From NCBI GenBank assembly GCA_041661765.1, contig JBAZTV010000001.1, positions 7,755 through 71,754 of the forward strand: a stretch of DNA of 64,000 nt. The letters are read 5' to 3'. The notes under the pieces are model-generated. The model was given only the letters and a program-made list of their open reading frames with translations, searched no databases and was not told where the DNA came from. The stretch is from Candidatus Shapirobacteria bacterium. Lineage in GTDB: Bacteria; Patescibacteriota; Microgenomatia; UBA12405. Each line of letters starts with the position of its first letter. The stretch's first letter is position 1. The position numbers and the translations under genes are program-made. Shown piece after piece: positions 25,467 through 60,843 of this stretch.

Positions 25467-25545
25467 ACATTAATATTAATACACCATTTCCAAAAGTCAA
25501 ACGCTTTATCTACGATCTATCATCAACAATCCAAGATCTAATTTG

Positions 25546-25619
25546 TGGGTGATGGGGGACTCGAACCTCCGACCCCTGTCTTATCAGGACAGTGCTCTAA
25601 CCAACTGAGCTAATCACCC
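25546..25619 (-). tRNA. tRNA-Ile (anticodon GAT); CCA not encoded
   Basis: Acceptor GGGTGAT/ATCACCC, D-arm GCTCAGTTGGTTAGAGC, anticodon stem-loop CTGTC-CTGATAA-GACAG, T-loop TTCGAGT. One A:C mismatch in the T-stem. Confidence 0.75.
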
Positions 25620-25755: not shown

Positions 25756-26700
25756 TTAACAATGTTTCAAAAACATCTCCACTATTAATTTTGCCACATT
25801 AATTCCAGTCGACTTTTCAAATCCCTGAAATTGACATTGTCGATTCACTTCCAACACAAAACTATTTCCTTCATCATCTTTCATGATATCTACTCCACAA
25901 TAATCCAATCCACAAACATTAGCCACTTTTTCGGCAATTTCTCTATCTTTCTGAGACAAATCCCAACCTTCAACCTTTCCCCCTAAACTAAAATTACTTC
26001 TAAATTCATCTCCCACCGCCGATCTTTTCATGGCTCCAATTGCTTTTCCATCCAACACAATAATTCTCAAATCCCATCTGGTTGGTAAACATTTTTGCCA
26101 CAAAAACATCCCTACATTTTTTTCATTAATTCTTCTGACAAATTTTCTTAGTTCTTTAAAGTTTTCAAATTTTCTTACCGATTTACCTTGAAACCCTCTT
26201 TCATGTTTAGCAATTATCGGCCAACCAAAACTTTCCCCAATTTTGCTCTCTAAAACTTGTTCCTTCGTATAGAATATTTTTGTCGGAATTACTGACACCT
26301 CATTTTCTAAAAACACCCCATGTTGAGCAATTTTCCCCATTCTTGTCCAATGTAAATATCCTTCTTTATTAGCACAAAATATTGATTTTTCTGTAAGAGC
26401 AGACCCTTGTGTCTGCCCACTCAATAATCTTATTGCTAAATTTCTCGCCTCAGTATATTTTCCCGATCTAGTACCCGCCACCCTAAACCACATTCCCAAA
26501 GTATTTTTCCCATTAATTTCTTCTCCTTTAATAAAAACTTTCGCCTTTCCATTCTCTACATTAAAAGTCAAATCCTTATACAAAGCTCTATTCACTTCCA
26601 CTCCCAATTTCTTTGCCTCAGATTCCAATCTATCCACCTCAAATTGGCTTTGTCTTAACGACATTGTAAATGTAACGATTTTTTTATTCATAATTTTCAC
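25756..26700 (-). CDS. RimK-like ATP-grasp ligase (paralogue 1) with an in-frame GQTQGSA hairpin insert
   Basis: ATP-grasp motifs: the C-terminal LDYCGVDIMKDDEGNSFVLEVNRQCQFQGFEKSTGINVAKLIV is RimK/LysX-like. The insert is encoded by the hairpin at 26392..26418. Confidence 0.7.
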   Translation of the reverse strand: MKIMNKKIVTFTMSLRQSQFEVDRLESEAKKLGVEVNRALYKDLTFNVENGKAKVFIKGEEINGKNTLGMWFRVAGTRSGKYTEARNLAIRLLSGQTQGSALTEKSIFCANKEGYLHWTRMGKIAQHGVFLENEVSVIPTKIFYTKEQVLESKIGESFGWPIIAKHERGFQGKSVRKFENFKELRKFVRRINEKNVGMFLWQKCLPTRWDLRIIVLDGKAIGAMKRSAVGDEFRSNFSLGGKVEGWDLSQKDREIAEKVANVCGLDYCGVDIMKDDEGNSFVLEVNRQCQFQGFEKSTGINVAKLIVEMFLKHC

Positions 26701-26735
26701 TATTAATTAATAAGTCCCTCTTGTCAAAGAGGGAT

Positions 26736-27818
26736 TTAGGGAGATTTCAATGATACTAAAAATTTAACCATTTCCATTGGCACATCAATTCCAGTTGCCT
26801 CCATAAATCCCTTAAATTGTGGTCCTTTATTCACTTCCCAAATTATCGGCTGGCTCAAGTCATTATTTCTAAAAGCCACATCTACTCCTGCCACTGCCAA
26901 TCCACAAACCTTAGCTGCCTTAACTGCCAATTGTTTAATTTCTTCCGACAATTCAGCCAATTCAACCTTTCCTCCAGCTGAATAATTATTTTTAAATTCA
27001 TCTTTATTTTGACTGCTTCTTTTCATCACTCCCAACACTTTTTCTCCCAACACCAACACTCGAAAATCCCCATCATTAGGGATAAACTCTTGCAGCATAT
27101 ATCTTCTTCCCTCATCAATTTCACTTTTTCTCAAATCTCTTACCAATTTTTCTAATTGTTCCAAATTATCCGTCTTAAACACTCTCGTCCCCCTGTCTCC
27201 ACCCGAACCCTTAATAATTACTGGAAATTTCCAAATATAATCAGTCGAGCCAGAAATATTTTTTTGGAGCGCAACATCCGAGGTGCAATGCCGAAGGGCG
27301 TGAGCACCAACAAAAATGTTTTGGCGATCAGACTGATTATTCATAAATTCATACAAATACCACAAACTTCCATAAACTGTTTTCGGTACCTCTATTCCCG
27401 CTTCTTTCAAAGCCAACATTTGCCAAGCCTTACACGCCATACTTGGTTTTCCACTTTCCACTAATGGATCAACGATGATTGGTTTTTTTAAGTCTCCCTT
27501 TAAGTCAAAGGGAGATTTAGAGGGATTTTTTATCTGATTAATAATCAAATCAACTTCTTCCCAATGTTTTCCCGTCGTTCTAAAAAACAACACATCGTAA
27601 TCGTCTACTTTTTTATAATCATCAAATTGGTTTATTCTACTTTCCCCACTTAAATTTGGTCTAATTAAAATTTCTTTTTTTTCCGTATCAAAACAAACTT
27701 TGTTGTATGACACCAAATCCAAACTAACCCCCAATTTTTTAGCCGCCTTTTTAACCAACACCAAATGTTGACTTATCTTCCCTCCAAAAAACACTGCTAT
27801 TTTTGTTTGTTTGTTCAT
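26736..27818 (-). CDS. RimK-like ATP-grasp ligase (paralogue 2) with two in-frame repeat inserts
   Basis: KGSGGDRGTRVFK and LAVAGVDVAFRNND...IWEVNKGPQFKGFMEATGIDV are RimK-like. The inserts are KNPSKSPFDLKGDLKK (about 27485..27535) and HALRHCTSDVALQ (GC-rich element at 27267..27309). Confidence 0.7.
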   Translation of the reverse strand: MNKQTKIAVFFGGKISQHLVLVKKAAKKLGVSLDLVSYNKVCFDTEKKEILIRPNLSGESRINQFDDYKKVDDYDVLFFRTTGKHWEEVDLIINQIKNPSKSPFDLKGDLKKPIIVDPLVESGKPSMACKAWQMLALKEAGIEVPKTVYGSLWYLYEFMNNQSDRQNIFVGAHALRHCTSDVALQKNISGSTDYIWKFPVIIKGSGGDRGTRVFKTDNLEQLEKLVRDLRKSEIDEGRRYMLQEFIPNDGDFRVLVLGEKVLGVMKRSSQNKDEFKNNYSAGGKVELAELSEEIKQLAVKAAKVCGLAVAGVDVAFRNNDLSQPIIWEVNKGPQFKGFMEATGIDVPMEMVKFLVSLKSP

Positions 27819-27895
27819 TTTATGTTTAATATTTAATTATTTTTTATTTTAAGCCTCCCTGTCAAGAGAGGATGCCCGAAGGACAGGTGGGTTTT

Positions 27896-29260
27896 TTATT
27901 TTTTCGCACTAACTAAAAAATCCCCTAAATCCTTTCTCCCCAATAAAAATTTCGTTCTCAATTTTCCTCTATCTGCCACATTCACTGCTGTTATTACTTT
28001 TTTACCATTCAACCAAAAAGTAATTCCTATCACTGGTCGATCTATATGTTTTCCCAAACTTGATCGATAATTTCGATAATATAAAATTCTTTCTTTAGCT
28101 AATAATCCTAATTTTTCAGCCAAATCCCTATCGATTGAACTCCTAAACGCCCCAGTATCCACCTTAGCTCTTACATTTACCACTCGATGTTTTCCTTGCT
28201 TAATAATCGGGCTTTTTTGTAAAATTGGTTTAAATCCTTTTATGATTTTAACCTTAATTATTTCAATTGGTTCCACTGTTTTTCTTTTTTCCTTTTCTTC
28301 AACTTTCTCAAAAAAACTTTCTCCAAATAAATATTTAACCAAAGTAATTGCATGTTCCACACTTCTCACCGTAATTTCATCTACTTTTTCCATTCTCAAT
28401 TTTAATCCTGCCTTATTACAAATCTGAATCGAAAGTCCTGGTCTAGCATTCACTTCTAATACCATTGGTCCCTTTTCTTTATCTAAGACTACATCTACAC
28501 CCATAAATCCTAAAGCCGGAATTGCTCTTTGACAATTAATTGCCGTCTCTAAAATTTCTTTCCAAAACGGAATTTTAATTCCATTTACTTTTCTGTTTTT
28601 CTTTTTTCCATAATCATAAATTCGATAAATTTGTTCCCCTTTTCCTTCAACCCCAAAAGTTGTAATTCCTGTTGCCAAATCTACCCCTAAACCTATCGCT
28701 CCTTGTTGTAAATTTGCCTTACCTCCCGACGCTTCTGTCGGAATTCTAAACATCGCCATCACTGGCACATTATTATAAACAATCACTCTAATGTCTGGTG
28801 TTCCCGATTTAGTCAAAGCCAAAAACAATGGATGAATTTTAATTCTTTCTTCCACAAGTACCTTATCAGGCATCGCATGTAAACTATATTTCCCCGCCAA
28901 AATTTCTTGACAATGCAAACTTAAATCGCTACTACTAACAATTTCTCCATTCATTTTTTGCCACTCACCCGCCCATTTTCCTCTTTTTCGAATAATTAAA
29001 ATTCCCTCCCCGCCATATCCTGATTCTGGTTTAATCACAAAGTTTCCTTCCAAATCTTCCCATCGAAATTTTGCCAAGTCTTGGTCATTCTTAAATCTAG
29101 TAATCAACTTTGGCACCGACACCCCCGCTTTAGAAATTATTTTTTTAGTTTTAAATTTACTATCAGCAATCGCTCTACCACTAGCACTATTTTTCCTCAA
29201 ATAAATTTTATTTCTCTCATTCTTAGTCAGAAATTGCCGATATTTTCTTAAATTAAACAT
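27896..29260 (-). CDS. Fusion protein: alpha-L-glutamate-ligase-related ATP-grasp domain plus a C-terminal retropepsin-like domain (the RimK-associated putative ATP-dependent zinc protease family)
   Basis: N-terminal ...FVIKPESGYGGEGILII...GFMGVDVVLDKEKGPMVLEVNARPGLSIQ is ATP-grasp. The C-terminal VVNVRAKVDTGAFRSSID...ITFWLNGKKV carries a retropepsin-type DTGA motif. Confidence 0.7.
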   Translation of the reverse strand: MFNLRKYRQFLTKNERNKIYLRKNSASGRAIADSKFKTKKIISKAGVSVPKLITRFKNDQDLAKFRWEDLEGNFVIKPESGYGGEGILIIRKRGKWAGEWQKMNGEIVSSSDLSLHCQEILAGKYSLHAMPDKVLVEERIKIHPLFLALTKSGTPDIRVIVYNNVPVMAMFRIPTEASGGKANLQQGAIGLGVDLATGITTFGVEGKGEQIYRIYDYGKKKNRKVNGIKIPFWKEILETAINCQRAIPALGFMGVDVVLDKEKGPMVLEVNARPGLSIQICNKAGLKLRMEKVDEITVRSVEHAITLVKYLFGESFFEKVEEKEKRKTVEPIEIIKVKIIKGFKPILQKSPIIKQGKHRVVNVRAKVDTGAFRSSIDRDLAEKLGLLAKERILYYRNYRSSLGKHIDRPVIGITFWLNGKKVITAVNVADRGKLRTKFLLGRKDLGDFLVSAKK

Positions 29261-29311
29261 AATTTATTTATTTTGTTAAGTCTCCCCTGTCAAGGGGAGA
29301 TTTAGAGGGGT

Positions 29312-30178
29312 TTAAATCTTCTTAGTTCGTATCGCCCCTTTAAACCTATTAATTTCTGTCAATCTTATTCCTGAATAATTCCCAATCAATAAATTTGAAA
29401 CTAATACTACCAATATAATCAACTCCGGATATTTCAAAACCAAATTTTGAATTGAACCAAAACTCATAAATATCGATCCACTCATAGCCAAAACAATTGT
29501 TCCCGCCATTAATTTTTTAGCTTCCTTTTTACTTTTAACCAATTGAGTTCTTACAAACTCTTCAGTTAAAAGTATCATAAATAAAATTGGAAAAATTGAA
29601 ATCTCACTAATATCAATAACGTTAACAAAACTCGTCAATAACATTAATGCAAATACTGCTACTGAAATAAACATCAAATTAATTGCTCTTGCTGGCCAAA
29701 AATGAATCTTCAATTTTTTCAAAACCATATTACCCAAAAGAGAAATTCCCAAAATTAATGCAAACAACAACAATCCTCCAAAAAATCCCGTTGACAGAAA
29801 AGCCACCGCAATCATTGTCGGCATAAAGATTCCATAACCCGACAAGCCCACCACATAATGCAAAAAAGATACCAAAGTTGCTATTAATGGTAATAACAAT
29901 AACAAAACTATTGTATTAGTTGATACACCTCTATCAATTGCCGTCTTTATCATCCATCTAAAACTATTAAACCCATTCCATTTACCCACTTCATAACTAA
30001 TTTTATTACTTTTTGCTTCAGTAATATTAATCGTCGGCACCACTGTCGGCATTAAAGTTGCCGTTGGAGTTGCAGTTACCGTTGGTGTAATTATTGTCTT
30101 AGCTAAAATTGGTTTAAATCCAAAAGCTAAAAAACAAACAGCAAATACTATTAATAGTGGGGCAACTATTTTTTTCAT
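29312..30178 (-). CDS. Seven-TM membrane protein with an N-terminal signal peptide and a Thr/Pro-rich linker; probable partner of the ATP-grasp/protease genes
   Basis: 288 aa with seven hydrophobic helices after a TPTVTATPTATLMPTVVPT linker. It is co-oriented and tightly spaced (51 bp) with the upstream ligase-protease gene. Confidence 0.55.
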   Translation of the reverse strand: MKKIVAPLLIVFAVCFLAFGFKPILAKTIITPTVTATPTATLMPTVVPTINITEAKSNKISYEVGKWNGFNSFRWMIKTAIDRGVSTNTIVLLLLLPLIATLVSFLHYVVGLSGYGIFMPTMIAVAFLSTGFFGGLLLFALILGISLLGNMVLKKLKIHFWPARAINLMFISVAVFALMLLTSFVNVIDISEISIFPILFMILLTEEFVRTQLVKSKKEAKKLMAGTIVLAMSGSIFMSFGSIQNLVLKYPELIILVVLVSNLLIGNYSGIRLTEINRFKGAIRTKKI

Positions 30179-30335: not shown

Positions 30336-30349
30336 TTTATAGTATAATT
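30336..30349 (+). promoter_or_regulatory. Candidate -10 element TTTATAGTATAATT, 10 nt upstream of the ATG of pilin paralogue 1 (an identical 14-mer lies at 32226..32239 before paralogue 6); possible leaderless or short-leader promoter
   Basis: Identical 14-mer with a TATAAT core in both places, each sitting directly after a family-1 repeat tail (GGTTTTT). Confidence 0.35.
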
Positions 30350-30358
30350 CAAACAAAT

Positions 30359-30691
30359 ATGAACTCCGTTTTAGCCTTTAATCTTAGTGACATCCAACTT
30401 GGACAAACTTCTAACACTCTTGGCGGCAGTTACTCCACTACCAGTTCTCTTATTTCTATTATTCTCAAAACTTCCATTACTATTGCCAGTATTATTTTTC
30501 TTGGCCTTTTGATTTTTGGTGGAATTACCTTTATAATGAACGCAGGCAGTGGTGATTCCAAAAAAGCCGATCAAGGCAAAACAGCCATCACCAACGCTGT
30601 AATTGGATTCGCTATTGTGCTTTTAGCCTATACCATAATCCAAATTATCGAAGTTATTACTGGACTAAACATTTTAAATCCAAATTTATAA
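30359..30691 (+). CDS. VirB2/TrbC-like two-helix pilin candidate, paralogue 1 (the ORF-track start at 30299 reads through a repeat; ATG at 30359 preferred)
   Basis: Hydrophobic helix, loop AGSGDSKKADQGK, hydrophobic helix. Same architecture and loop motif as the five downstream paralogues. Confidence 0.55.
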   Translation: MNSVLAFNLSDIQLGQTSNTLGGSYSTTSSLISIILKTSITIASIIFLGLLIFGGITFIMNAGSGDSKKADQGKTAITNAVIGFAIVLLAYTIIQIIEVITGLNILNPNL

Positions 30692-30693
30692 TT

Positions 30694-30999
30694 ATGGCAT
30701 CAATTTTTGGAAACATTTCCAACCCCACTTCTTTTGCTAACGGTCCTCAAGGTTTCTTTGATTTTTTAAGCGCTATTTTTAAAGTTGCCGGCACAGTTGC
30801 TGGTATTTTCTTTATTATTAAAATAATTATGGCTGGTTTTAGTTACCTCAACGCTGGTGGAGATGAAAAGAAAATCTCCCAAGCTTGGGCTACCATTTGG
30901 CAAAGTATAGTTGGTTTCGTTATTGTTGCCTCTGCTTTTGTCATCGCCAGTGTCATCGGCAACTTAACTGGAATTAATATTCTTAACCCTACTCTATGA
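30694..30999 (+). CDS. VirB2/TrbC-like pilin candidate, paralogue 2
   Basis: TM helix, loop AGGDEKK, TM helix. 2-nt spacing from the previous gene. Confidence 0.55.
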   Translation: MASIFGNISNPTSFANGPQGFFDFLSAIFKVAGTVAGIFFIIKIIMAGFSYLNAGGDEKKISQAWATIWQSIVGFVIVASAFVIASVIGNLTGINILNPTL

Positions 31000-31340
31000 A
31001 CCATTTAACCAATAATCTTTTAGCCTACACTCTCACTGGTCCAGGTATTAAACCTGGATCCAATTCTGTTTCCACCTTAGAAAAAATTATTAGTTCTGTC
31101 ATTGGCATTTTAACCCTTGTTGGTGTTATTTACTTCACCATTCAAATAATTTTAGCCGGATATAAATTAATTGCTTCCCAAGGAGATCCAAAAGAATTCG
31201 AATCTGGTAAAAAAAGATTAACCACAAATATTATCGGTTTAGCTGTTATTGTTCTCGCCTACGGGCTCGGTGCCCTAATCGCCAGCTTACTCGGAATGAG
31301 CAGTATTTTTGATTTATCAACCGTTTTTAAACCAATTTAA
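30996..31340 (+). CDS. VirB2/TrbC-like pilin candidate, paralogue 3
   Basis: TM helix, loop SQGDPKE, TM helix. 4-nt overlap with the previous gene. Confidence 0.55.
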   Translation: MNHLTNNLLAYTLTGPGIKPGSNSVSTLEKIISSVIGILTLVGVIYFTIQIILAGYKLIASQGDPKEFESGKKRLTTNIIGLAVIVLAYGLGALIASLLGMSSIFDLSTVFKPI

Positions 31341-31341
31341 T

Positions 31342-31668
31342 ATGGCCATCACCAATCCTGTTTTAAAAAATAGTTCTAATATTAGTAGTAACCCCACTGG
31401 CTACTTTAACAGTGCCATTCAAACTATGATTTCTCTTTTTTTTATTTTTGGCCTAATCTACTTTATTTTTCATTTAGTTCTTGCCGGCTACAAAATGATT
31501 TCCTCTCAAGGGGATCCTAAAAAATATGAAGAGGCTCAACATAGCCTTATCTACTCTTTAATTGGTATTGCTATCGTCTTTTCCATTTTTGCCCTACTCA
31601 AAATTGTTGGCACTATTTTCGGTATCACCGGATTAGAAAGTTTAACCATTACCTGGCCATCCCTTTAA
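31342..31668 (+). CDS. VirB2/TrbC-like pilin candidate, paralogue 4 (start moved to the ATG right after the upstream stop)
   Basis: TM helix, loop SQGDPKK, TM helix. Confidence 0.55.
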   Translation: MAITNPVLKNSSNISSNPTGYFNSAIQTMISLFFIFGLIYFIFHLVLAGYKMISSQGDPKKYEEAQHSLIYSLIGIAIVFSIFALLKIVGTIFGITGLESLTITWPSL

Positions 31669-31717
31669 TATTTAAAATTTACTGGTAAAATTAATTAATA
31701 GTTATTAAATCAAAAAA

Positions 31718-32098
31718 ATGATCAAAGAAATAAAAAACAAAATTCAATTTGCAGCTGTTGCTGCTCCAATCTACGCCGCTCAAAGTTTAGAACTTACTGG
31801 TAAAGAGGGAAGCTTTTCTAACCTCGAAAATTTAACCATTAACGGTATGGTTTCTGGTGCTATTAGTTTAGTTTTAATTGTCGTGTCGTTAGTTTTCTTC
31901 TTTATTCTTGTCATCGGTGGTCTCAAGTGGATCACTTCTGGTGGAGATGAAAAAAAGGTTGCTGCCGCTCGTGCTGAAATTACCAATGCTTTAATCGGTT
32001 TAGTTATTGTCTTTGCCGCTTGGGCCATTATGAAACTTATTGGCTCCATCTTTGGCATCAACATCCTTGGAACTCTAACCATTCCAACTTTCCAATAA
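31718..32098 (+). CDS. VirB2/TrbC-like pilin candidate, paralogue 5
   Basis: TM helix, loop SGGDEKK, TM helix. Followed by a terminator hairpin. Confidence 0.55.
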   Translation: MIKEIKNKIQFAAVAAPIYAAQSLELTGKEGSFSNLENLTINGMVSGAISLVLIVVSLVFFFILVIGGLKWITSGGDEKKVAAARAEITNALIGLVIVFAAWAIMKLIGSIFGINILGTLTIPTFQ

Positions 32099-32114
32099 AA
32101 TCAATTTGATTTTT

Positions 32115-32144
32115 CACCCCTCCAATAATTTGGAGGGGTTTTTG
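32115..32144 (+). terminator. Intrinsic terminator after pilin paralogue 5 (CACCCCTCCAATAATTTGGAGGGGTTTTTG)
   Basis: An 8-bp GC-rich stem followed by a T5 run. Confidence 0.6.
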
Positions 32145-32244
32145 TTTAGACTTCTCCTTTTTTTTAATAAAAATAAAAGTGCCCTGTCAAGGGAAAGGTG
32201 GTACGAAGTACCAAAGGGTTTTAACTTTATAGTATAATTAATCC

Positions 32245-32598
32245 ATGAATTTAATCTCAAATATTTTCTCTCCTCCCCCAGTTTATGCCCAATCAGTTTG
32301 GAATAGTACTTGTGTTAAAGATACCGACGTCGCCACTATCCAAGGTTTTAATTGCCTTTTTGCTAATATTGCCCAAGTTATCGTTTATTTTGCTGGTCTT
32401 GCCTTTTTTATCATGTTCATTCGCGGTGGCTTCAGTTATCTAACTTCCAGTGGCGATCCAAAAAAAACAGCTAAAGCCACTTCCACCCTCACCCTGGCCA
32501 TTATTGGCCTAGTTGGAGTTATTATTTCCTACCTAATCATCAAATTCATCGGTGATTTTACAGGCATCAATATTACTGAGTTTAATATTCCCAGTTAA
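32245..32598 (+). CDS. VirB2/TrbC-like pilin candidate, paralogue 6
   Basis: TM helix, loop SSGDPKK, TM helix. It has its own upstream TTTATAGTATAATT element, identical to the one before paralogue 1. Confidence 0.55.
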   Translation: MNLISNIFSPPPVYAQSVWNSTCVKDTDVATIQGFNCLFANIAQVIVYFAGLAFFIMFIRGGFSYLTSSGDPKKTAKATSTLTLAIIGLVGVIISYLIIKFIGDFTGINITEFNIPS

Positions 32599-34085
32599 TG
32601 AAACGAATCTTAATCGTTTTATTATTTTTCTTATTTTTATTCCCCTCCTTGTCAAGGGAGGGGTCAGGGGTGGGTTTTGTCTACGCCCAACCAACAACTA
32701 TTTTATCTGAAAATCAATCCACCACTCCACCCACCGTCACCCCAGAAGAAAGTTTATGGACCAGATTTTGGAATTGGATTTCCAAAGTTTTTATTAAAAC
32801 TGATTACGCCATTGCCGAAAGATCAACCAAAAATATTAATTCTGACATGACCGAATATGGCACTACCTCAGACAATGGTAAACATTCATCTTCTGGCACT
32901 CGTCTCACCGATTCCCAAAGCCAAACCTGCTACAAAGGCAATGTTATTAAAAAAGTGATTTTAAATACTACTGGTTATCCCAACACTGACCTCACCCAAA
33001 TTTGTAATTCATCAAATGGTTGTGTTGTTTCCTCTGGTTCTGATTCTGATTGTAAAACAGTTTCTATTAAAGATTTAGCTCATTACTTTGTTCAAATTAA
33101 TAAACAATTCTATTGTGATAGTTCAAATAATTTAATTAATATTGAATCCAATATTACTAATGCTGTTATTGGCACCAGCCTTCCAGAAATTTCACAAAAC
33201 AATCTTAATTGTTATCAACAAATATATAATGATTTTTATCTAGTCCCTAAAAACGGTTCCACCGAAGAAGAAAATTCCAAAAATATAGTTCAAACTCCAA
33301 TTTCCGCCAGCAATCAAAGTTCCGGTGACAATGCCAATGCTACAAAAAATAAACTCAATAAAAATTTTATTCCTGCTAATAAAAATTGGAGTGGTTTAAA
33401 CAGCCTCCGCCCCGCTAGTTGGAAAAAAGGTCCATCAGAAGCTGGTACAGGTACCGGCACTGGATTTAATAGTGGTGGTGTCGTTAGTCCTGGTACGTGC
33501 AATGCCAAAGACAGCCACTGTCGAGGCATGAGCACCATTGGTGCTTTTGGTCTTTCTAAGTCAGGCAAAACTTATGAAGAAATACTTAAAAGTTATTACG
33601 GCGACATCACTCTTAAAACCATTGACATCTCCAATGCTAATATTACTATTATTCCCAATGATAACGACGACTGTTCATCAACCACTCTAAATCTCGAAAC
33701 TTACCTTAGTGGTCTTCAAGAAATACCCGATTCTTGGGGTGATTCCAGTGCAGGTGGTTATGAAAGTTTAAAAGCTCAAGTAGTAGCCGCTCGTACATAT
33801 GCTTACGTCTACACTCAAAATTTAACCAAATCAATTTGTACTAGTTCTAGTTGCCAAAATGCTCGTTGCAATGCCATTAATAGTAGTCCTAATTTAGACA
33901 AAGCAATTAAAGATACTGAAGGCCAAATTATTGTTGATTCAAATAATCAAACTCCATTCGCCACCGAATATGCTCGTTCCTTTTGCGGACCATCTCTATC
34001 CGTTACTTTTTCTAACCATACCACTCCTTCATTTAATGGTTATGATGCCGAAGTTCAAACCGGCGAAAAACTTTATTGTTTATAA
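32598..34085 (+). CDS. Secreted Cys-rich protein with a C-terminal SpoIID/LytB-like (lytic transglycosylase-type) domain
   Basis: N-terminal hydrophobic signal (partly repeat-encoded: FPSLSREGSGVGFVYA). C-terminal ...GGYESLKAQVVAARTYAYVYT... matches the conserved SpoIID/LytB signature (ALKAQAVAARTYA). Confidence 0.5.
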   Translation: MKRILIVLLFFLFLFPSLSREGSGVGFVYAQPTTILSENQSTTPPTVTPEESLWTRFWNWISKVFIKTDYAIAERSTKNINSDMTEYGTTSDNGKHSSSGTRLTDSQSQTCYKGNVIKKVILNTTGYPNTDLTQICNSSNGCVVSSGSDSDCKTVSIKDLAHYFVQINKQFYCDSSNNLINIESNITNAVIGTSLPEISQNNLNCYQQIYNDFYLVPKNGSTEEENSKNIVQTPISASNQSSGDNANATKNKLNKNFIPANKNWSGLNSLRPASWKKGPSEAGTGTGTGFNSGGVVSPGTCNAKDSHCRGMSTIGAFGLSKSGKTYEEILKSYYGDITLKTIDISNANITIIPNDNDDCSSTTLNLETYLSGLQEIPDSWGDSSAGGYESLKAQVVAARTYAYVYTQNLTKSICTSSSCQNARCNAINSSPNLDKAIKDTEGQIIVDSNNQTPFATEYARSFCGPSLSVTFSNHTTPSFNGYDAEVQTGEKLYCL

Positions 34086-35659
34086 AGCAATATTTTTTTA
34101 TGCTAAAATTATCTACAATGTCCGTCTCAAATATCTTACAGAAACTCAATTTCCGCGATACCAAATTAATTCCCCAATTTCCCAAATTAAATAAAAAAAT
34201 TAAATTTGCTTCCATTTTAATAGCTTTCGTTTTTCTAGGTTTTCTAGGACACAAAATCCTCGCCGCCGATACTGCCATCGAAAAATTTAAAGCCAAACAA
34301 GCTGCTATAGACAAGGGGAACAATCAAGAATCCTGGATGAACGAATCCATGATGAGTAATGCCATGTCTATTAATACTGCCATTGCCGGCACCATTCCCG
34401 ATTCTGTTCTTAATGGCACAGTCACCTCTTGGATCCCTGGCGGTATGATTGGTTTCACCAACAACGCTATCGCCACTCTTTATAATCCACCTGCCTCCGG
34501 TGTTCAGTATATTGCCGAAACTTTCAACAATTTTCTCGGCAAACCAGCCTACGCTACTAATGGTTATGACGGTTTAAAAGGTATTCAAAATATTTGGAAA
34601 TCCTTCAGAAATGCCGTTTATATTCTCTTTTCAATAGTTTTTGTTGGTATTGGCATTGCCATCATGCTCCGAGTCAAAATAAGTCAACAAGCCGTTATTT
34701 CCATTCAATCCGCCATACCTAGCTTAATCACTAGTCTTATTTTAGTAACTTTTTCCTATGCCATCGCCGGACTTCTTATTGATCTAAGTTATGTTTTTCA
34801 AGGTTTAGTTCTCGCTATACTTTTCAGTTCCAAAGGTGGATTAAATTCTGAACTTTTCCCCGGTTTTCTTAGTATTAGCCCTACATTTTCCAATCTTGTG
34901 ACTGCTGATTTTTGGACTGTTCTTCGTCTGACCTACAAAGCAGTCCCCATCGCAACTATGTCCGCACTATCAGGCATTGTTGCTGGAGCAATTGCTGGTC
35001 TTATAGGCGGATTCACAACTCTTATAACTGCTGGTATAGGTTGGGTCCCTGGCTTAATCGCTGGAGGCGCTGTTGGTGGGTTAGCTTTTATTCTTATATT
35101 TGCAATAATTCTAATAACAATTATCGTAAATGTCGTTAAGTTTTTCATTGGTATGGCTAAATGTTTTATTAATATTATTTTAAGGATAATTCTTGCTCCT
35201 CTTGAAATTGGTATGGGAGCAATTCCCAACAGTAAAATGAATTTTTCAAGTTGGATTTGGAATATAATTGCCAATTTAGCCGTTTTTCCACTCTCTCTTA
35301 TTTTCTTAGTTTTAGTTAACATGATTATCGACAGTGTCAACACAAGTAATCTTTGGGCTCCTCCAATGCTCGGCGGCAGTTGGTTATTAGGTCCTCTAAT
35401 CGGAATTAGCGCTTTAATGATTCTTGCCAAACTCCCAGCCATGATTCCAGAATTTATATTCCAACTCAAACCATCTCCATGGGGCAAAGCCATTGGTGAA
35501 AGTTTCGCTTCAATTGGTAAAACTGGTAAAATTGGCGAAGCTATTACAGGTGAAGGTCTTAATAGAGCATCAGATCTAACTGGTGAAGGCAATCGGTCAT
35601 GGCAAAGAGCCCTCAGAGGAGCCAACACCATATGGCAAAGAGCTCATAATAGACACTAA
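34076..35659 (+). CDS. Large polytopic membrane protein (8 or more TM helices), VirB6/TrbL-like by architecture
   Basis: 527 aa with multiple long hydrophobic helices separated by short loops and Gly/Ala-rich helices (GIVAGAIAGLIGGFTTLITAGIGWVPGLIAGGAVGGLAFILIFAIILITIIV). No enzymatic motifs. Confidence 0.45.
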   Translation: MFIKQYFFMLKLSTMSVSNILQKLNFRDTKLIPQFPKLNKKIKFASILIAFVFLGFLGHKILAADTAIEKFKAKQAAIDKGNNQESWMNESMMSNAMSINTAIAGTIPDSVLNGTVTSWIPGGMIGFTNNAIATLYNPPASGVQYIAETFNNFLGKPAYATNGYDGLKGIQNIWKSFRNAVYILFSIVFVGIGIAIMLRVKISQQAVISIQSAIPSLITSLILVTFSYAIAGLLIDLSYVFQGLVLAILFSSKGGLNSELFPGFLSISPTFSNLVTADFWTVLRLTYKAVPIATMSALSGIVAGAIAGLIGGFTTLITAGIGWVPGLIAGGAVGGLAFILIFAIILITIIVNVVKFFIGMAKCFINIILRIILAPLEIGMGAIPNSKMNFSSWIWNIIANLAVFPLSLIFLVLVNMIIDSVNTSNLWAPPMLGGSWLLGPLIGISALMILAKLPAMIPEFIFQLKPSPWGKAIGESFASIGKTGKIGEAITGEGLNRASDLTGEGNRSWQRALRGANTIWQRAHNRH

Positions 35660-54682: not shown

Positions 54683-56623
54683 TTATAAAATTCTTGCAAA
54701 TTTTGTAAATCTTGAATAAGTTCCCATTTTTACAAAACCCGATCCTCCTCCACAAATATCAAGATTTCCCCCGGCTCCATCATGAATCCATAATAAATTA
54801 CCAGATGAATCTCTTCCTGCAAAAATTCCAATATGATCATTTGATCCCTCAATTCCTATATCACCCAATTGTAGGCTATTACTTGATATGCTTTTATCTT
54901 TCGCGCCAGCATAAATACTTGCCACATTACCCCTAGTCTCTATTCCAAGTTGATGGTAAGTCCAAATTACAAAACCAGAACAATCTAATCCATAAACATT
55001 TCTATCTGATCCAGAAGGAGAATTATTATTACCAAAGTTAGTAGTACCCCAATTCATATCAATGCCCCTCACTGGTTCACCAGATTGGTGACCTCCACCA
55101 TACCAGTAACAAACTTTGTTTAATAAAGAGCTAGCCATATCCACCACCATTTGTCCTGTAACTGTTTGGTTTGGATCAACTGTTGGTAAAACAATCGGAC
55201 CTGAAGATGAGATATATGGGGTTTCTGAAAATATAGAAGTGGAAGTTTCTGCTTCTTCCGGTGGTACTAAACTTGAAACTGAATTTCCCATTAATATTTG
55301 ATATCCAAATAATCCCCCAAAAACTAAAAGTATTATTGGTCCCATCACTGCTGCCGATACTGCTCCAATTAAAAGAAACGGCAAACCCACAATAAACATA
55401 CCACCACCAATAATTGCCCCACCTACTTTTCCAAAATTTTCTTCCAAACCCTTTTTAATTCCTATTCCCAATTTTTCCGCTATTTTACTAACTACATTTT
55501 TTAATATTTTAGCCGCCGCCGCTACTGCCACCACAATCGCCCCTATTCCAGTTGCCGAAATTGCCGCTGCCCCAGCTGCGGTTGCCGCTCCTGCCGCCGC
55601 CGCAGTACCAGTCGTTGCCGCTGCTTTAACTCCACCACTTAAAATTCCACTTAAAACCGTTGAAATACCCTTTTGAAAACCTTGTTCTGCTATGACGCCT
55701 AAAGAATTTTTTGCAAATTCACTAATTGCTTGATTTCCAATTTTGCTTATTAACTTTTGTTTTGTCCCAAACATTGTCTTATTCAGCCATCCGCCTGTCA
55801 ATTTATCCACTCTTCTATACCAACCCAAATAACCTTGAGTTCTAGAAAATAAATTACTCACACCCTGATCGTTAAAACCAGAAATTACATTTTCAAATGA
55901 TCGCACTTCTTTTATATCCTTCGGAAGATTTACATTTTTTAAGACACCTCTAATTGATTCATATCTATTTTTAATTTCTTTTACTTCTTCCGGCTTCTTA
56001 GTTAAGAAATTAGTTACGCCTCTTAAATCAGTCCAAGCATTCTCTAACTTACCTGGACCAAATTGGTTATTATTTTGTAGTGCCTCGTCTTTTTGCTCGT
56101 CAATTATACTTTCACTAAAATATATTTCCGAAACTAACTTCCCATACGCCCTTACATTATTTGATTCTTCTGCCTTCAAATCGGGATTCATTTTTTTAGT
56201 TTCTTCTAGTAGTTTTTTTTCAAAAACTTCCTTTTTAAACTCATTTATTCCATCTACATTTTCTTTCTTCCACTTATTCATCTCTATTTTTATTTTTTTT
56301 ACTTCAATCTCCGTCTCTTTTTTATCTTCTACTATTAAATTTTTTGAAACCACTTCTATCAAATCTTTTATTTCTTCTCCACTTGTTTTTATCTCTTCTT
56401 CTCCAAAAATAGACTTAATTTTAGATTCAAGTTCATTTTTTAGATTACCATCCCCATTTAAATTTTTTGTTATTTTTTCACCTAATTCTACTATTTTCTG
56501 TTCAACTGGATTTTTATTTTTTTTGTAATCATCTATATTAAAAACTTTCGCACCACCAGAAAAAACATCTCGATCAATATCTTGTAAAGCTGAACTTCCA
56601 TCCGTTCTGTTTGCCATTACCAA
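54683..56623 (-). CDS. Membrane-anchored cell-wall hydrolase with a C-terminal NlpC/P60 (CHAP-like) domain; analogous to Gram-positive T4SS hydrolases of the PrgK/TraG type
   Basis: Coiled-coil N-terminus; Ala/Gly-rich TM region (AAATTGTAAAAGAATAAGAAAISATGIGAIVVAV...); C-terminal YGLDCSGFVIWTY...H.GIFAG (Cys-His papain-like NlpC/P60 signature). Confidence 0.6.
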   Translation of the reverse strand: MVMANRTDGSSALQDIDRDVFSGGAKVFNIDDYKKNKNPVEQKIVELGEKITKNLNGDGNLKNELESKIKSIFGEEEIKTSGEEIKDLIEVVSKNLIVEDKKETEIEVKKIKIEMNKWKKENVDGINEFKKEVFEKKLLEETKKMNPDLKAEESNNVRAYGKLVSEIYFSESIIDEQKDEALQNNNQFGPGKLENAWTDLRGVTNFLTKKPEEVKEIKNRYESIRGVLKNVNLPKDIKEVRSFENVISGFNDQGVSNLFSRTQGYLGWYRRVDKLTGGWLNKTMFGTKQKLISKIGNQAISEFAKNSLGVIAEQGFQKGISTVLSGILSGGVKAAATTGTAAAAGAATAAGAAAISATGIGAIVVAVAAAAKILKNVVSKIAEKLGIGIKKGLEENFGKVGGAIIGGGMFIVGLPFLLIGAVSAAVMGPIILLVFGGLFGYQILMGNSVSSLVPPEEAETSTSIFSETPYISSSGPIVLPTVDPNQTVTGQMVVDMASSLLNKVCYWYGGGHQSGEPVRGIDMNWGTTNFGNNNSPSGSDRNVYGLDCSGFVIWTYHQLGIETRGNVASIYAGAKDKSISSNSLQLGDIGIEGSNDHIGIFAGRDSSGNLLWIHDGAGGNLDICGGGSGFVKMGTYSRFTKFARIL

Positions 56624-56635: not shown

Positions 56636-59221
56636 TTAAACTATCCCGTCTCCAAACAATTTATCATAATCCATCTTATTGTCTTCTTTTTTAAATTCTC
56701 CCTTGTCAAGGGGAGATGTCGATTTATCGACAGAGGGGTTTGAATCAAATATTGGTTGTGGTTTTCTTGCCAATTGTGGTGGTTGAGGTATTCTTTGTTC
56801 TTCAGTTTTAACAAAAATCGGTTTTTTATTTTCCGAGACCACTACAACTTCTGGCCTTTTAAATAACACCGACTCAGTTTTTAACTCCGGTTTTATTTCA
56901 GTCATCGCTACTGTGGGATTAAAGGAGGTGTTCCGCAGTGGCGGAACGGAGGGTTTTACTTCAATTTCCACTGGTTTTATTTCGGGAACACTAACTTTAG
57001 GAGTAAAATTAATGGTTCTTATTTCATCAGTTTTATTAGCAGTCAATGCTGACTCAACTGGTTTTACCTCCATCGGTTTTATTTCTAAAACATTAAAATT
57101 AGTTGTCGTTTCAGGCATTTTAATCTCCATTGATTTTATTTGCCCTGCCCTGTCAAGGGAAGGGTTAGTGAAGGGTTTAGGTACTTCTGGTGGGACTGAG
57201 GGGTTTTGAACCGGAATTTTATTTTCAATCTCTACAGTTTTTATTTCTGGAATATTAAATTTTGGCGCCACTGGAGTCGTTTTTACCTCGACTGGTTTTA
57301 AGTCTCCCTTGTCAAAGGGAGATTTAGAGGGATTGAAAACAGCTGATGGGTTTTGAAACGGTTTCGTTTCTATCGGTTTAATTAGTGGTTTCATTCCATT
57401 ATTTGGCTTTTGATCACTCAATAAACTTTGCTTTTTTAAAATATCTTCTGGATTAGAAGTAATTAAATTATGTTCATCAGCCGAAGCAATTATTTGAATT
57501 GCCACATGGTTTTGCCCAGCAAAGAAAATTCCTTCACCTTTACTTGCCGATAATAATAATTGTTTTTCTCCCTGACTCAAATAAAATACTTCTCCAATTT
57601 GGTCAATAGCCGCACTATGTTGTTTTAATAAAATTTGAATTGAACTATTAGTAACTATTTCTTTACCATAAGCAGTTTTCAAAAAATCATCAACATCTTG
57701 GGTAATTGTTGTCACTCCCAAATAGTATTTTCTGCCTCTTTTAACAATTCCTCTTAAAAATTCAGCTGAATCATCATGTTGCATCAAATACCAGGCTTCA
57801 TCCACCACCAATATTCTTTTTTTCAATGTCTTTTTAACAACCGTCCAAATATAATCCAAAATAATTTGCATTGCCACAGGTCTCAAAGCATCTTCCAAAT
57901 TTCTAATTCCAAAAACTACAAATTTATTAGTTAAATTAACCGTTGTCTTTTGGTTAAAAATTCCCGAAAAGGATCCTTTAATATATTTTTCCAATCTGGC
58001 TGCCAAACCTTTAGCTTTTTCATCTTCCATTCCAATCAAAGATTTATACAAATCCTCAATTAATGGTGGTTCTTTGTCTTGAGTTACTGGATCAGGAGTA
58101 ATCCCTTTCATCTTATAAGCATCCATCATTGCTCTATCCATAATTGATTCCTCAATCGGATCCATTTCACCCAACATCACTTTTAATAGTTTATGTAAAG
58201 ATAAGATCTTAGTATTTAAACCATTTTCACCCTGTTCTTCGGCTAAAGTTAAATCAAACGGATTAATTTTTGAACCTTCACCATAACCAAATGCAATATA
58301 TTGGCCGCCAGAATTATCACACAATTCTTTGTATTCATTTTCCGGGTCAATCACAATAACATCCGTTCCCATCATTAATGATCTAAGAACCTCCAATTTA
58401 ATTAAATAAGATTTACCAGCTCCAGCCATAGCAAAAACAACTGAATTATAATTTGGCATTGAAAATCTATCAAAAATTACCAAAGACCCATTATGCATAT
58501 TAATCCCATACATAATTCCCTGATCATCTGATAAATCTGACGACACAAAAGGGAAAGTAGTTGCCAAAGAGGTAGTATCCATATTTCGACTAACTGCCAA
58601 TCTATCTTGGCAAATAGGTAAAGTCGATACAAATCCATCTTCCATTTGTAACGTCGCTTTTTTACTTATAATCAACAACGATCCCAAGGCTGCCTCTAAA
58701 TTTTTATTTACTCTATCCAGTTCAACTATAGAATCAGCCGTTATCGTTACATAAAGTCCAAATTGAAAAAATCTTTCTTCGCCTTTAACCAAATTAGCCT
58801 GCAAATTCAAAGCATCCTCCAATTTCGCTTGTGTTGCTGGATTAATCAATCTACCCCTTTGAATATCAGTACTTAACTCGGCCTCCATTTCTGTGATTTT
58901 TCGGCGAAGATCATCTAAAACTTCTTTTCCATCGGTCGGATAAATAAACATTGAAATATTTAAAGAAGAATCAAAGTTAATCAATGACGACAACCAATTA
59001 ATTCCCACAAATCTCGGATATGCCGCAACAAATAAAGTTCGATAATATTTATTATCAATTCTAATATGGTTAAAATCCACTTCCAAAGCTGATGGAGCAA
59101 TTATATCTTTAGTTGTCACCAACCCTTGAGTGAAATCTCTTTTATTTGGATCAACTACCTCTGTTGGTGTTGCTGGATTATTTACTACTGTTGTTTTTTT
59201 ATTAATATTAAAAAGTTTCAT
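56636..59221 (-). CDS. virB4: VirB4/TrbE/CagE-family T4SS ATPase with a C-terminal extension of about 270 aa that reads through four palindromic repeats
   Basis: Walker A VFAMAGAGKSYLIKLEVL; Walker B ILVVDEAWYLM; conserved RKYYLGVTTITQDVDDF. The tail contains SKSPFDKGDLKP, NPSLDRAGQIK and TSPLDKGEFKK, encoded by repeats at 56697..57331. Confidence 0.8.
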   Translation of the reverse strand: MKLFNINKKTTVVNNPATPTEVVDPNKRDFTQGLVTTKDIIAPSALEVDFNHIRIDNKYYRTLFVAAYPRFVGINWLSSLINFDSSLNISMFIYPTDGKEVLDDLRRKITEMEAELSTDIQRGRLINPATQAKLEDALNLQANLVKGEERFFQFGLYVTITADSIVELDRVNKNLEAALGSLLIISKKATLQMEDGFVSTLPICQDRLAVSRNMDTTSLATTFPFVSSDLSDDQGIMYGINMHNGSLVIFDRFSMPNYNSVVFAMAGAGKSYLIKLEVLRSLMMGTDVIVIDPENEYKELCDNSGGQYIAFGYGEGSKINPFDLTLAEEQGENGLNTKILSLHKLLKVMLGEMDPIEESIMDRAMMDAYKMKGITPDPVTQDKEPPLIEDLYKSLIGMEDEKAKGLAARLEKYIKGSFSGIFNQKTTVNLTNKFVVFGIRNLEDALRPVAMQIILDYIWTVVKKTLKKRILVVDEAWYLMQHDDSAEFLRGIVKRGRKYYLGVTTITQDVDDFLKTAYGKEIVTNSSIQILLKQHSAAIDQIGEVFYLSQGEKQLLLSASKGEGIFFAGQNHVAIQIIASADEHNLITSNPEDILKKQSLLSDQKPNNGMKPLIKPIETKPFQNPSAVFNPSKSPFDKGDLKPVEVKTTPVAPKFNIPEIKTVEIENKIPVQNPSVPPEVPKPFTNPSLDRAGQIKSMEIKMPETTTNFNVLEIKPMEVKPVESALTANKTDEIRTINFTPKVSVPEIKPVEIEVKPSVPPLRNTSFNPTVAMTEIKPELKTESVLFKRPEVVVVSENKKPIFVKTEEQRIPQPPQLARKPQPIFDSNPSVDKSTSPLDKGEFKKEDNKMDYDKLFGDGIV

Positions 59222-59925
59222 TCCATTTGCCCTCCTGTCACTACCGGTGCTTGATAATTTACATTTTGAACCTTTTGGCTAACGGCAGTTTCTTCATTAT
59301 AAGTTCTATAAAAAAGATCAATTACTTCTTTATTATTCAAAGGTTTTATTTCCAACCCTAGTCTCGAAAAAAGTCTCAATAAGTGATCTACTTTTGGTTC
59401 CAAATTAATTTTAGCCTTTTCTAAAATATATTCTTTAGTAAATGGTAATTCCTGACCCCTGCCTTGCTGTAAAAACATTTTTATTCCTTTAGTTCCACCA
59501 GTTTTAATTCCCAACTCCAAAGACGAAAAAGTAATCGCAATATAAAACGATTTTGATAAAATATCACTCTTTTTAACTGTTTCTTCGATAAATTTTCTAT
59601 ATAGACTAATCCTTTCCTTTAGGCGCGGGTTTAATTGCTTTTCCTCCATATTTTGCAAATTTTTTAAATAAGAACTTACATCTTTGGCATGTGATTGAAT
59701 AATAATTTGTATTGGAAAATTTAAAGAATTTATAATTCCTCCATAAGCAAAGACTAAAGCCGATTGTTCTGGCTCAGACAACAAATCAAAATTAACAGAC
59801 GACACACTTAATACCTTTGAGCAAGATCCATCTTTCATAATCACAATCCCATCAACCACATCTTCTATTGGTAAATGTTCCTGAGTACTTCCTTTAATAG
59901 CAATCTTTAGTGGATCTGTTGGCAT
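59218..59925 (-). CDS. Hypothetical cytoplasmic protein (235 aa) co-transcribed upstream of virB4
   Basis: 4-nt overlap with the virB4 start. No motifs. Confidence 0.4.
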   Translation of the reverse strand: MPTDPLKIAIKGSTQEHLPIEDVVDGIVIMKDGSCSKVLSVSSVNFDLLSEPEQSALVFAYGGIINSLNFPIQIIIQSHAKDVSSYLKNLQNMEEKQLNPRLKERISLYRKFIEETVKKSDILSKSFYIAITFSSLELGIKTGGTKGIKMFLQQGRGQELPFTKEYILEKAKINLEPKVDHLLRLFSRLGLEIKPLNNKEVIDLFYRTYNEETAVSQKVQNVNYQAPVVTGGQME

Positions 59926-59928
59926 ATT

Positions 59929-60843
59929 TTAATTATTAGAAATAATTCTAATTGGTTGAACTATTTGTTCATTTAAATCTATATTAACTCTATCAAAATT
60001 ATAACCATCTTTTTCCGCAATTATCAGATATCTACCATTTGCCAAAGGAGTTGTTATTTTAAATTGACCTAAAGAATTTGTTTTTAATACCCTTGAAGGG
60101 TTTCCTTGTTCATCTTGGACTTCAATAATTACTCCATCAATTATCGCTCCCTCCATATTCGTTGCCATACCCACTATTACATTAGGTACTTCTGGAATAT
60201 CTGGCATTGGAATAGAGCCAAAAATTGCTTTTCCTGTCGCTCCTAATTTTTCTGTTTTAAGATTTAAATTTGCTTTTTGATCTTTCCAATCTTCTACTTT
60301 TTCTTCAACTTTTTCACTCGGACTTACTTCTACTGCTAGTTTTTTTTCAGTGATTATTTTTTTAATTTCAGGTTTTGCTTCAAGTTCTATATTAATTTCT
60401 TCTTTAGTTCCACCTTTTTTTATTCCAATTACACCTATTGCATCTTTTAATTTATTTCCCCAAAGATTAGATTTTAATCGTCCTCCAGTCATTACAATAT
60501 CATCTTCATTCTGGTTTATATTTTTTGTTAAATCTAAATCAAGCCAATTTTTATTAGCCTTTCTCCGATAAATATAAATTGTTGGTGAATAAATTGCTTT
60601 TAAAAATGAAAAAATCCATACTTCCAATGGTCTATCCTCGAAAGGTATAAAAGCCAAAACTAATCCACCCCCAGCAAAAAGTAATATTAACGGCCACTTT
60701 ACCAAAATTATTAATTTAGTTGAATTAATCATTATTGCCAAAACTATTCCCACTGCCGCCTTCAAAAATTGCTTCAACGTCATATCTCCCACAAGTTTAA
60801 ATTCATAGGATGATATTTGCTGTGGAATCGCGTGCTGTTCCAT
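59929..60843 (-). CDS. Bitopic/2-TM membrane protein with an extracytoplasmic carboxypeptidase-regulatory-like beta-sandwich (NGRYLIIAEKDGYNF)
   Basis: N-terminal hydrophobic helices, then a soluble domain. First gene of the virB4-containing minus-strand block. Confidence 0.4.
   Translation of the reverse strand: MEQHAIPQQISSYEFKLVGDMTLKQFLKAAVGIVLAIMINSTKLIILVKWPLILLFAGGGLVLAFIPFEDRPLEVWIFSFLKAIYSPTIYIYRRKANKNWLDLDLTKNINQNEDDIVMTGGRLKSNLWGNKLKDAIGVIGIKKGGTKEEINIELEAKPEIKKIITEKKLAVEVSPSEKVEEKVEDWKDQKANLNLKTEKLGATGKAIFGSIPMPDIPEVPNVIVGMATNMEGAIIDGVIIEVQDEQGNPSRVLKTNSLGQFKITTPLANGRYLIIAEKDGYNFDRVNIDLNEQIVQPIRIISNN

Follow-up and report, generated by a model that had tools for sequence, protein, structure and literature searches.

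A probable VirB2-like pilin array of six conserved paralogue classes on a Candidatus Shapirobacteria chromosome

What do six small, divergent membrane-protein genes, arranged head to tail on the chromosome of a Candidatus Shapirobacteria bacterium, encode: interchangeable versions of one protein, or different parts of one machine? The genes lie near the middle of a 64,000-nucleotide (nt) stretch of contig JBAZTV010000001.1 (assembly GCA_041661765.1), referred to here as the window, and are identical to WCT51_02595-02620 of a Candidatus Shapirobacteria metagenome-assembled genome (Patescibacteria), where they are annotated as hypothetical proteins. Based on family profiles, gene context and comparison across species, we consider it likely that they form the chromosomal VirB2-like pilin array of a Patescibacteria type IV secretion system (T4SS), and that a two-unit, multi-component model describes them. 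Patescibacteria account for much of the diversity of uncultured bacteria, and their T4SS is essential in the single species tested.

The six open reading frames (ORFs) are co-oriented and encode proteins of 101 to 126 amino acids (aa), each with two hydrophobic helices, as described in the first-pass annotation of this sequence (coordinates are given in Table 1). The start codons are identical in public gene calls from three metagenome contigs with the identical locus. When the stop-to-stop ORFs of the window were searched with a profile of the family, precisely these six matched (E 1e-27 to 1e-51) and no others. Pairwise identity within the array is 25-40%. The gaps from gene 1 to gene 6 are +2, -4, +1, +49 and +146 nt; the spacing of -4 to +50 nt reported earlier holds for the first four and misses the last, which contains the terminator and a copy of a repeat element, both discussed below.

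All six proteins follow a single plan: a hydrophilic N-terminus of 20-40 residues, two hydrophobic helices (the first strongly so) separated by a charged loop of ~10 residues, and a short tail. The two hydrophobic segments of each protein reach Kyte-Doolittle peaks of 2.1-3.3, and the C-termini (ILNPNL, ILNPTL and so on) read as previously quoted. An AlphaFold2 (AF2) model of paralogue 5 has antiparallel helices at residues 34-73 and 78-112, joined by a four-residue turn at SGGD, with a predicted local distance difference test score (pLDDT) of ~90. Each pilin is shown to be a membrane hairpin of two helices, and the short loop between them bears Lys. The loop consensus is [GAS][SGQ]GD[SEP]K[KE], and paralogues 1 to 6 carry GSGDSKK, AGGDEKK, SQGDPKE, SQGDPKK, SGGDEKK and SSGDPKK. 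The motif first proposed, (A/S)(G/Q)GD(P/E)K(K/E), is recognisable in the array and needs amending for paralogue 1, which has S in the P/E position. The N-terminus of paralogue 5 is K-rich and continues into AAVAAPIYA/AQS (the slash marks the putative cleavage site), resembling a signal peptide, and paralogue 6 has a short leader that ends in VYA/QS and a conserved Cys pair in its N-terminal segment. The A-x-A/Q-like sites of paralogues 5 and 6 were found by inspection and suggest that these two proteins may be cleaved there.

The pilins belong to the T4SS_pilin family, PF18895. In a Pfam scan all six scored above its gathering threshold (31.5-36.2 bits versus 26.6). The two transmembrane (TM) helices and short charged loop of that family are present, as judged by hydropathy and the AF2 model, and so is the T4SS gene context: a virB4 cluster at 54.7-60.8 kb, a hydrolase and a candidate VirB6-like protein downstream of the array, and synteny in relatives. 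Precomputed PF18895 matches exist on every listed homologue, and close homologues carry public annotations such as 'pilin' and 'type IV secretion system pilin'. The identification as T4SS pilins made in the first-pass annotation is therefore upheld, since the proteins pass a curated threshold and T4SS components are both present and conserved.

The comparison across species bears directly on what the six copies are. A relative exists in 321 species, and 80 species-representative loci were retrieved via the membrane protein encoded downstream of the array. Pilin ORFs at these loci were assigned by class-specific hidden Markov models, and the 54 loci with enough upstream sequence were counted. 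Exactly six pilins, in the order 1-2-3-4-5-6, were present at 49 of the 54. Additional pilins occurred at three loci and were of class 5 every time (two or three copies); of the remaining loci, one was truncated by the flank and one had no pilins inside 7 kb. Positional orthologues in four genomes compared by hand were 44-92% identical, as against 21-40% between classes. Between the window and its closest relative, the ratio of nonsynonymous to synonymous substitution rates (dN/dS) was 0.06-0.11 for each of the six pilins and higher, 0.19-0.27, for the two downstream genes. Every class (61-72 sequences per class) also has invariant residues of its own. The class 5 consensus retains FFF..GGLKW..S.GD.K.V..AR.QITNAL, and that of class 6 retains its Cys pair ('c..' and 'TIqG.EC'). 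Two classes stand out as best conserved; one of them is class 5, which is also the sole class duplicated in other species. Judged by these alignments, the six pilins are ancient, non-interchangeable paralogue classes that have kept the same order under strong purifying selection in at least 49 species.

Two explanations for the multiplicity had been offered at the outset, antigenic or host-range diversification and a heteropolymeric filament, and the comparative data separate them. If the array supplied interchangeable major pilins for antigenic variation or adaptation to host strains, as proposed for Bartonella TrwL and Anaplasma VirB2 and suggested for Patescibacteria (PMC12102498), strong divergence among the paralogues would fit, and so would the extra copies of class 5 in three of the 54 species. 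The Bartonella trwL and Anaplasma virB2 paralogues are indeed a similar case of tandem VirB2-type multiplication in a host-associated bacterium, and have been interpreted as variable surface structures (cited in PMC12102498). The Shapirobacteria array, unlike these, is fixed in number and order and under purifying selection. No class except class 5 has been lost or gained, orthology is one to one, dN/dS is low throughout, and invariant residues specific to each class are what would be expected of six different parts rather than of interchangeable antigenic variants. Moreover, with one predicted promoter for pilins 1-5 and genes that overlap or lie close together, co-expression rather than switching is expected. 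We consider interchangeable pilins unlikely. The sequence comparisons argue against the host-adaptation idea, class 5 possibly excepted; fixed class order, one-to-one orthology and low dN/dS together favour non-redundant subunits, and the heteropolymeric or multi-part assembly that the first-pass annotation gave as its alternative is the better fit.

The regulatory elements around the array point to two units of expression. The 14-mer TTTATAGTATAATT is found as two exact copies in the window, at 30336-30349 and 32226-32239, before paralogues 1 and 6 as first noticed, and includes a perfect TATAAT. From its end to the ATG there are 9 nt at pilin 1 and 5 nt at pilin 6, and the corresponding distances from the -10 box are 10 and 6 nt. 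At 6 nt the usual start site would fall on the A of the pilin 6 ATG, making the mRNA leaderless, and at 10 nt the pilin 1 mRNA would be near-leaderless. By our estimate, about 30 identical AT-rich 14-mer pairs are expected by chance per 64 kb, and at up to two mismatches the 14-mer had no more copies than in shuffled sequence. Since its copy number is not above chance, its significance rests on position before start codons and on conservation.

That conservation is extensive. A -10-like box lies 5-11 nt 5' of the ATG of class 1 pilins in 45 of 61 species (exact TATAAT in 41), and 5-8 nt 5' of the ATG of class 6 pilins in 63 of 68 (41 of them at 6 nt). Before classes 3 and 4 such a box was found in one of 65 and eight of 66 species, with exact TATAAT in neither; classes 2 and 5 are intermediate (16/63 and 16/72). 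In three other genomes the distances of the -10 box are kept and the upstream sequence is entirely different. An equivalent of the terminator, a hairpin followed by a T-run, occupies the same position in the related genomes L004, L006 and L008 with a different sequence. A layout of two units is thus well supported by inference from these elements: one would comprise a promoter, pilins 1-5 and a terminator, and the other a promoter, pilin 6, the SpoIID hydrolase and the VirB6-like protein, with the mRNAs of both predicted to be leaderless or nearly so. With the -10 box and terminator conserved in dozens of species, the earlier proposal of two transcription units with very short leaders gains support, and the conserved leaderless promoters and terminator define two predicted expression units that are testable in metatranscriptomes.

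Short leaders may not be peculiar to this locus. TATAAT was found 5-10 nt 5' of the ATG at nine other ORFs of the window, among them the ftsH, NlpC/P60, 868-aa and M23 peptidase genes; on the minus strand, such ATGs, with TATAAT 5-9 nt before them, are at 10794, 15922, 21903, 38278, 42439, 42862 and 56617. No obvious Shine-Dalgarno sequences were seen before the pilin genes on reading the sequence. Leaderless or near-leaderless transcripts look like a genome-wide habit, which would explain the missing Shine-Dalgarno sequences.

Copies of a two-hairpin repeat directly precede both 14-mers, an observation of the first-pass annotation that proved real. Its suggestion that the repeats may carry the promoters with them was rejected, because the -10 box is present in genomes with different upstream sequence or no repeat: L004 has the identical 14-mer with unrelated sequence upstream at pilin 1, and L006 and L008 have the -10 box without the element.

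The second unit links the array to two further proteins. The SpoIID-domain protein, of the peptidoglycan lytic transglycosylase type, is a candidate functional analogue of VirB1, and in other genomes its slot is taken by SLT plus SpoIID, or by VanY. In related genomes, the genes directly 3' of the array likewise encode a wall hydrolase and a candidate VirB6-like protein. In the window the latter is a 519-aa protein, whose best fold matches in the PDB were the T4SS proteins DotA and TrwI/VirB6. The public gene call for this protein starts at 34100, and no record was found for a 527-aa version with a TTG start. For this protein and 29 homologues there was no Pfam TrbL/VirB6 match, only sporadic DUF6861 and glycine-zipper noise, and a profile search of the PDB returned nothing relevant and no solved VirB6 chain. 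On these fold matches, the 519-aa protein is a candidate for the VirB6 that profile searches miss in Microgenomatia, and a concrete one.

The remaining T4SS genes of the window, the virB4 cluster, are next to dnaA/dnaN. No match to coupling-protein or relaxase families was found among the scanned window ORFs of at least 150 aa. The window is chromosomal, with 23S and 5S rRNA, tRNAs, rho, radA, ftsH, yidC, dnaA and dnaN.

Several results weigh against reading the six genes as a VirB2-like array that builds a filament. TrbC/VirB2 membership is not demonstrable at the sequence level and has to be argued from architecture and context. In the comparison with TrbC/VirB2 profiles proposed by the first-pass annotation, only paralogue 3 scored with PF04956, below threshold (23.4 versus 27.9 bits, E 6.9e-5), although some class 3 orthologues have precomputed or weak PF04956 matches; in hhalign, two pilin profiles (A4 and A6) matched an alignment of six annotated plasmid VirB2/TrbC proteins with probabilities no higher than 1.4% and 0.2%, a weak negative given the small profiles. 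The best NCBIfam match of all six was NF045849, the Mbov_0395 pilin-like conjugal transfer protein of Mycoplasma, at 24.6-32.0 bits and so below its 40-bit cut-off. A sequence-profile search of the PDB with the six pilins found designed proteins only (E>1), and Foldseek of the pilin 5 model against the PDB found generic helical hairpins (E>1) and no VirB2/TraA chain among the first 50, a search that is uninformative because a two-helix hairpin is too generic. The array is also ~24 kb from virB4, with housekeeping genes between. Fixed gene order is evidence of non-redundancy, but co-assembly does not follow from it. Finally, the filament, the processing and the transcription in this organism are predictions made from sequence.

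Alternatively, the proteins may stay in the membrane, for example as subunits of a channel or scaffold, either in the T4SS or in a different envelope machine; no filament would then be made, and 'pilin' would be a misnomer. No pilus has been seen so far for a monoderm T4SS, and one would be remarkable according to a 2025 review (PMC12857230); the distance from virB4 and the hhalign result, which leaves homology to pilus-forming VirB2 not demonstrable, would suit such a role. The T4SS_pilin threshold that all six pass speaks for pilins instead, as do the weak TrbC/VirB2 matches of paralogue 3 and its orthologues and the linkage to a wall hydrolase and a VirB6-like protein. In the R388 system, VirB2 polymerises on a VirB6 platform. 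We regard purely membrane-resident subunits as quite improbable.

Membership of some unrelated two-TM family (holins, bacteriocin immunity proteins or type IV (T4P) pilins, for example) is effectively refuted: small size and two TM helices are generic features, and only generic hairpins came out of the fold search, but no holin or immunity family matched any of the six in Pfam or PHROGs (the PHROG matches being one unnamed membrane family and one unknown family, E ~0.004-0.006), none of the six N-termini has the class III prepilin leader (G/F or M-x-x-x-E) and the proteins have two TM helices rather than one, and the genes are chromosomal, conserved and outside a phage context, with T4SS genes conserved nearby, so that the outcome named in the first-pass annotation as fatal to its reading did not arise.

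For the two-unit, multi-component array we propose the following mechanism. In pilins of the VirB2 type, such as F and T pilins, the loop is cytoplasmic and both termini are outside. The Lys-bearing loop and the positive-inside rule predict the same arrangement here, and the pilins would accordingly insert in the cytoplasmic membrane with the GDxKK loop inside and both termini outside. Extraction would fall to the VirB4 ATPase, whose gene is next to dnaA at a distance of 24 kb, acting on the VirB6-like platform. The pilins would then build a single filament or stalk of several components, passing through the wall where the hydrolase has opened it. For the major (bulk) subunit, class 5 is the likely choice, since no other class duplicates and it ranks among the two most conserved. 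Minor, tip or base roles would be left to the remaining classes: classes 1-4 may be co-expressed minor subunits, and class 6 may be made together with the platform. If Southlakia epibionticum is a guide, the machine is probably used for epibiotic contact or exchange with a host cell and not for conjugation.

The invariant six-class order argues for distinct parts of one machine. A stricter version, which we put forward tentatively and as possible rather than probable, is that a heteromeric monoderm T4SS filament or stalk requires all six classes, each in a defined stoichiometry, with class 5 as the polymerising major subunit, classes 1-4 as co-translated minor subunits and class 6 as a base or adaptor made together with the hydrolase and with the 519-aa protein, which would be the missing, highly divergent VirB6 of Microgenomatia. 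If true, such a heteromeric filament would be the first heteropolymeric VirB2-type assembly, parallel to major/minor pilin systems. The proposed analogy is with type IV pili and the pseudopili of type II secretion systems, which have a fixed set of divergent paralogues with one abundant and several scarce subunits. Their fold and leader are unrelated and the prepilin peptidase motif is absent here, so that the likeness is an analogy only.

Arrays of this kind were already known. Quinonero-Coronel et al. (2025) described 441 VirB2 arrays of 2-11 genes in 383 assemblies, with a mean identity of 25%, and found them frequent in Microgenomatia, the class containing Shapirobacteria; the T4SS of Patescibacteria is described there as MPF-FATA-related, usually without relaxase, often near dnaA and with VirB2-like pilins (PMC12102498). 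Wang et al. (2023) reported a series of predicted pilins inside the essential T4SS cluster of S. epibionticum (PMC10633639), which the 2025 review counts as six sequence-divergent VirB2-like proteins (PMC12857230). Since both had been described, the array of Shapirobacteria is a correct recognition of a known feature and no new kind of system. It shares with the arrays of these reports PF18895, tandem divergent paralogues (mean identity 25% there, 25-40% here), a chromosomal location in a monoderm, an MPF-FATA-like VirB4, a T4SS near dnaA, and relaxase and coupling protein not being found. The VirB4/PrgI/NlpC-P60 arrangement of the window next to dnaA/dnaN also matches that of Microgenomatia in PMC12102498. 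The S. epibionticum pilins are within the T4SS cluster, whereas here they are 24 kb from virB4 and linked to the SpoIID-type hydrolase and VirB6-like protein. The portions of PMC12102498, PMC10633639 and PMC12857230 consulted describe no fixed six-class order, no leaderless promoters and no two-unit layout.

Canonical VirB2/TrbC proteins (PF04956; Agrobacterium VirB2, R388 TrwL) resemble the six in size, two hydrophobic helices and a short basic loop, in an adjacent lytic transglycosylase gene, and in the functional link to VirB6 and VirB4. The canonical VirB2 leader ends in ...AAA/QSAGG, to be compared with the A-x-A/Q leader end of paralogues 5 and 6. Canonical systems differ in having one pilin gene, next to virB3, in a diderm, where the window has six classes in a monoderm, and in sequence, PF04956 being below threshold and hhalign finding no similarity. 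The Mbov_0395 family of Mycoplasma integrative and conjugative elements is likewise made of two-TM pilin-like proteins, from T4SSs in a wall-less or monoderm setting. Unlike the array, this family is represented by one gene on a mobile element, and the scores here are below its cut-off.

Table 1. Positions of the pilin genes, regulatory elements, T4SS-related genes and repeat copies in the window
Feature	Position	Strand	Details
Pilin paralogue 1 (class 1)	30359..30691	+	110 aa; PF18895 33.1 bits; two TM helices; orthologues 52-91% identical
Pilin paralogue 2 (class 2)	30694..30999	+	101 aa; PF18895 33.9 bits; starts 2 nt past pilin 1 stop
Pilin paralogue 3 (class 3)	30996..31340	+	114 aa; PF18895 35.1 bits; 4-nt overlap with pilin 2 (ATGA)
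Pilin paralogue 4 (class 4)	31342..31668	+	108 aa (119 from upstream TTG); PF18895 34.1 bits; 1-nt gap to pilin 3
Pilin paralogue 5 (class 5)	31718..32098	+	126 aa; PF18895 36.2 bits
Pilin paralogue 6 (class 6)	32245..32598	+	117 aa; PF18895 31.5 bits
Promoter-like site P1	30320..30349	+	AGGACA, 17 nt, TATAAT (30343-30348); consensus scan, 10/12 matches
14-mer with -10 box TATAAT (32233-32238), before pilin 6	32226..32239	+	Sequence; cross-species -10 conservation
Intrinsic-terminator-like hairpin	32116..32147	+	10-bp GC-rich stem ACCCCTCCAA/TTGGAGGGGT, then TTTTTGTTT
Two-hairpin repeat copy upstream of P1	30269..30335	+	Repeat families D10, D17; second hairpin supplies -35-like AGGACA
Second two-hairpin repeat copy, just upstream of promoter 2	32168..32225	+	CCCTGTCAAGGG ... 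GGTACGAAGTACC ... GGGTTTT; repeat family D9; fold
Secreted SpoIID-domain protein (peptidoglycan lytic transglycosylase type)	32598..34085	+	PF08486 E=6e-10; start overlaps pilin 6 stop
519-aa polytopic membrane protein, VirB6-like candidate	34100..35659	+	Fold search
Membrane-anchored NlpC/P60 hydrolase, virB4 cluster	54683..56623	-	PF00877
VirB4-like T4SS ATPase	56636..59221	-	P-loop_TraG 103 bits, AAA_10, DUF87
235-aa protein and 304-aa PrgI/VirB3-like membrane-embedded protein, upstream of virB4	59218..60843	-	PrgI below threshold, 21.5 versus 27 bits
Further example copies of the 35-55-nt element	7238-7269, 29276-29316, 32622-32676, 42911-42951, 45136-45192, 56692-56732, 57298-57338		
Second-family GC-rich hairpin copies	12450-12475, 15690-15715, 22112-22137, 26393-26418, 46026-46051, 46211-46236, 50708-50733		

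Downstream of the second unit, at 35672-38278 on the minus strand, is a gene for an 868-aa protein with no family match, apparently soluble and without an obvious hydrophobic segment in its translation. It contains an internal near-exact duplication (DENDRKIEGIFGKDKG, twice). This protein and a DUF6909 protein (38512-40077, plus strand) follow the pilin/VirB6-like unit in all related genomes examined. The 868-aa neighbour was considered as a part of the pilin system and was not linked to it. On the other side of the array, and divergent from it, three ATP-grasp proteins (two RimK-like and one ATPgrasp_ST) and a 7TM_transglut membrane protein are encoded at 25756-30178 on the minus strand; this ATP-grasp cluster is syntenic with the pilin array in all four related genomes examined.

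Elsewhere in the window, 5S rRNA, 23S rRNA and tRNA-Ala are contiguous within 17579-25619 (minus strand), and the window has no 16S rRNA. The tRNA-Ile (25545-25619) is ~4.5 kb from the tRNA-Ala (20967-21042), with VTT, GH18 and a 568-aa unknown between them. The GC skew is strongly negative (-0.1 to -0.47) over 1-64000, with no sign change at dnaA (51489) or dnaN. An ORF of at least 1779 aa (6-5345, plus strand) runs off the start of the window. It has dozens of 51-nt (17-aa) repeats of the form N-T-x-G-x-x-N-T-A-x-G and a Peptidase_S74 (endosialidase chaperone) domain, and from these features probably encodes a fibre or adhesin.

Many intergenic gaps of the window contain the two-hairpin repeat, a pervasive 35-55-nt element composed of a hairpin CTCCCC-TGTCAA-GGGGAG, a second variable hairpin or ATTTAGA, and GAGGGGTTT; nine copies passed strict scoring, all on the plus strand. 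The element also occurs in frame within ORFs, in the C-terminal tail of VirB4, GH18, Wzy and a DUF4012 protein, and is in this respect reminiscent of the Rickettsia palindromic elements. The last ~260 aa of the VirB4-like ORF (56636-57420, minus strand) form a Pro/Lys/Val-rich low-complexity tail, putatively coding, with at least three hairpin-element copies, from which peptides such as NPSKSPFDKGDLKP and SPLDKGEFKK derive. In the SpoIID-like gene, the element encodes FPSLSREGSGVGFV within the signal peptide. It is present here and in L004 and absent from the L006 and L008 orthologues, which shows an in-frame insertion.

A second repeat family is a GC-rich hairpin, GTAGGGGCAGACC-nTTGTG-TCTGCCC, with seven copies in the window (families D13 and D18). 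In L004, the terminator after pilin 5 is a hairpin similar to this second family.

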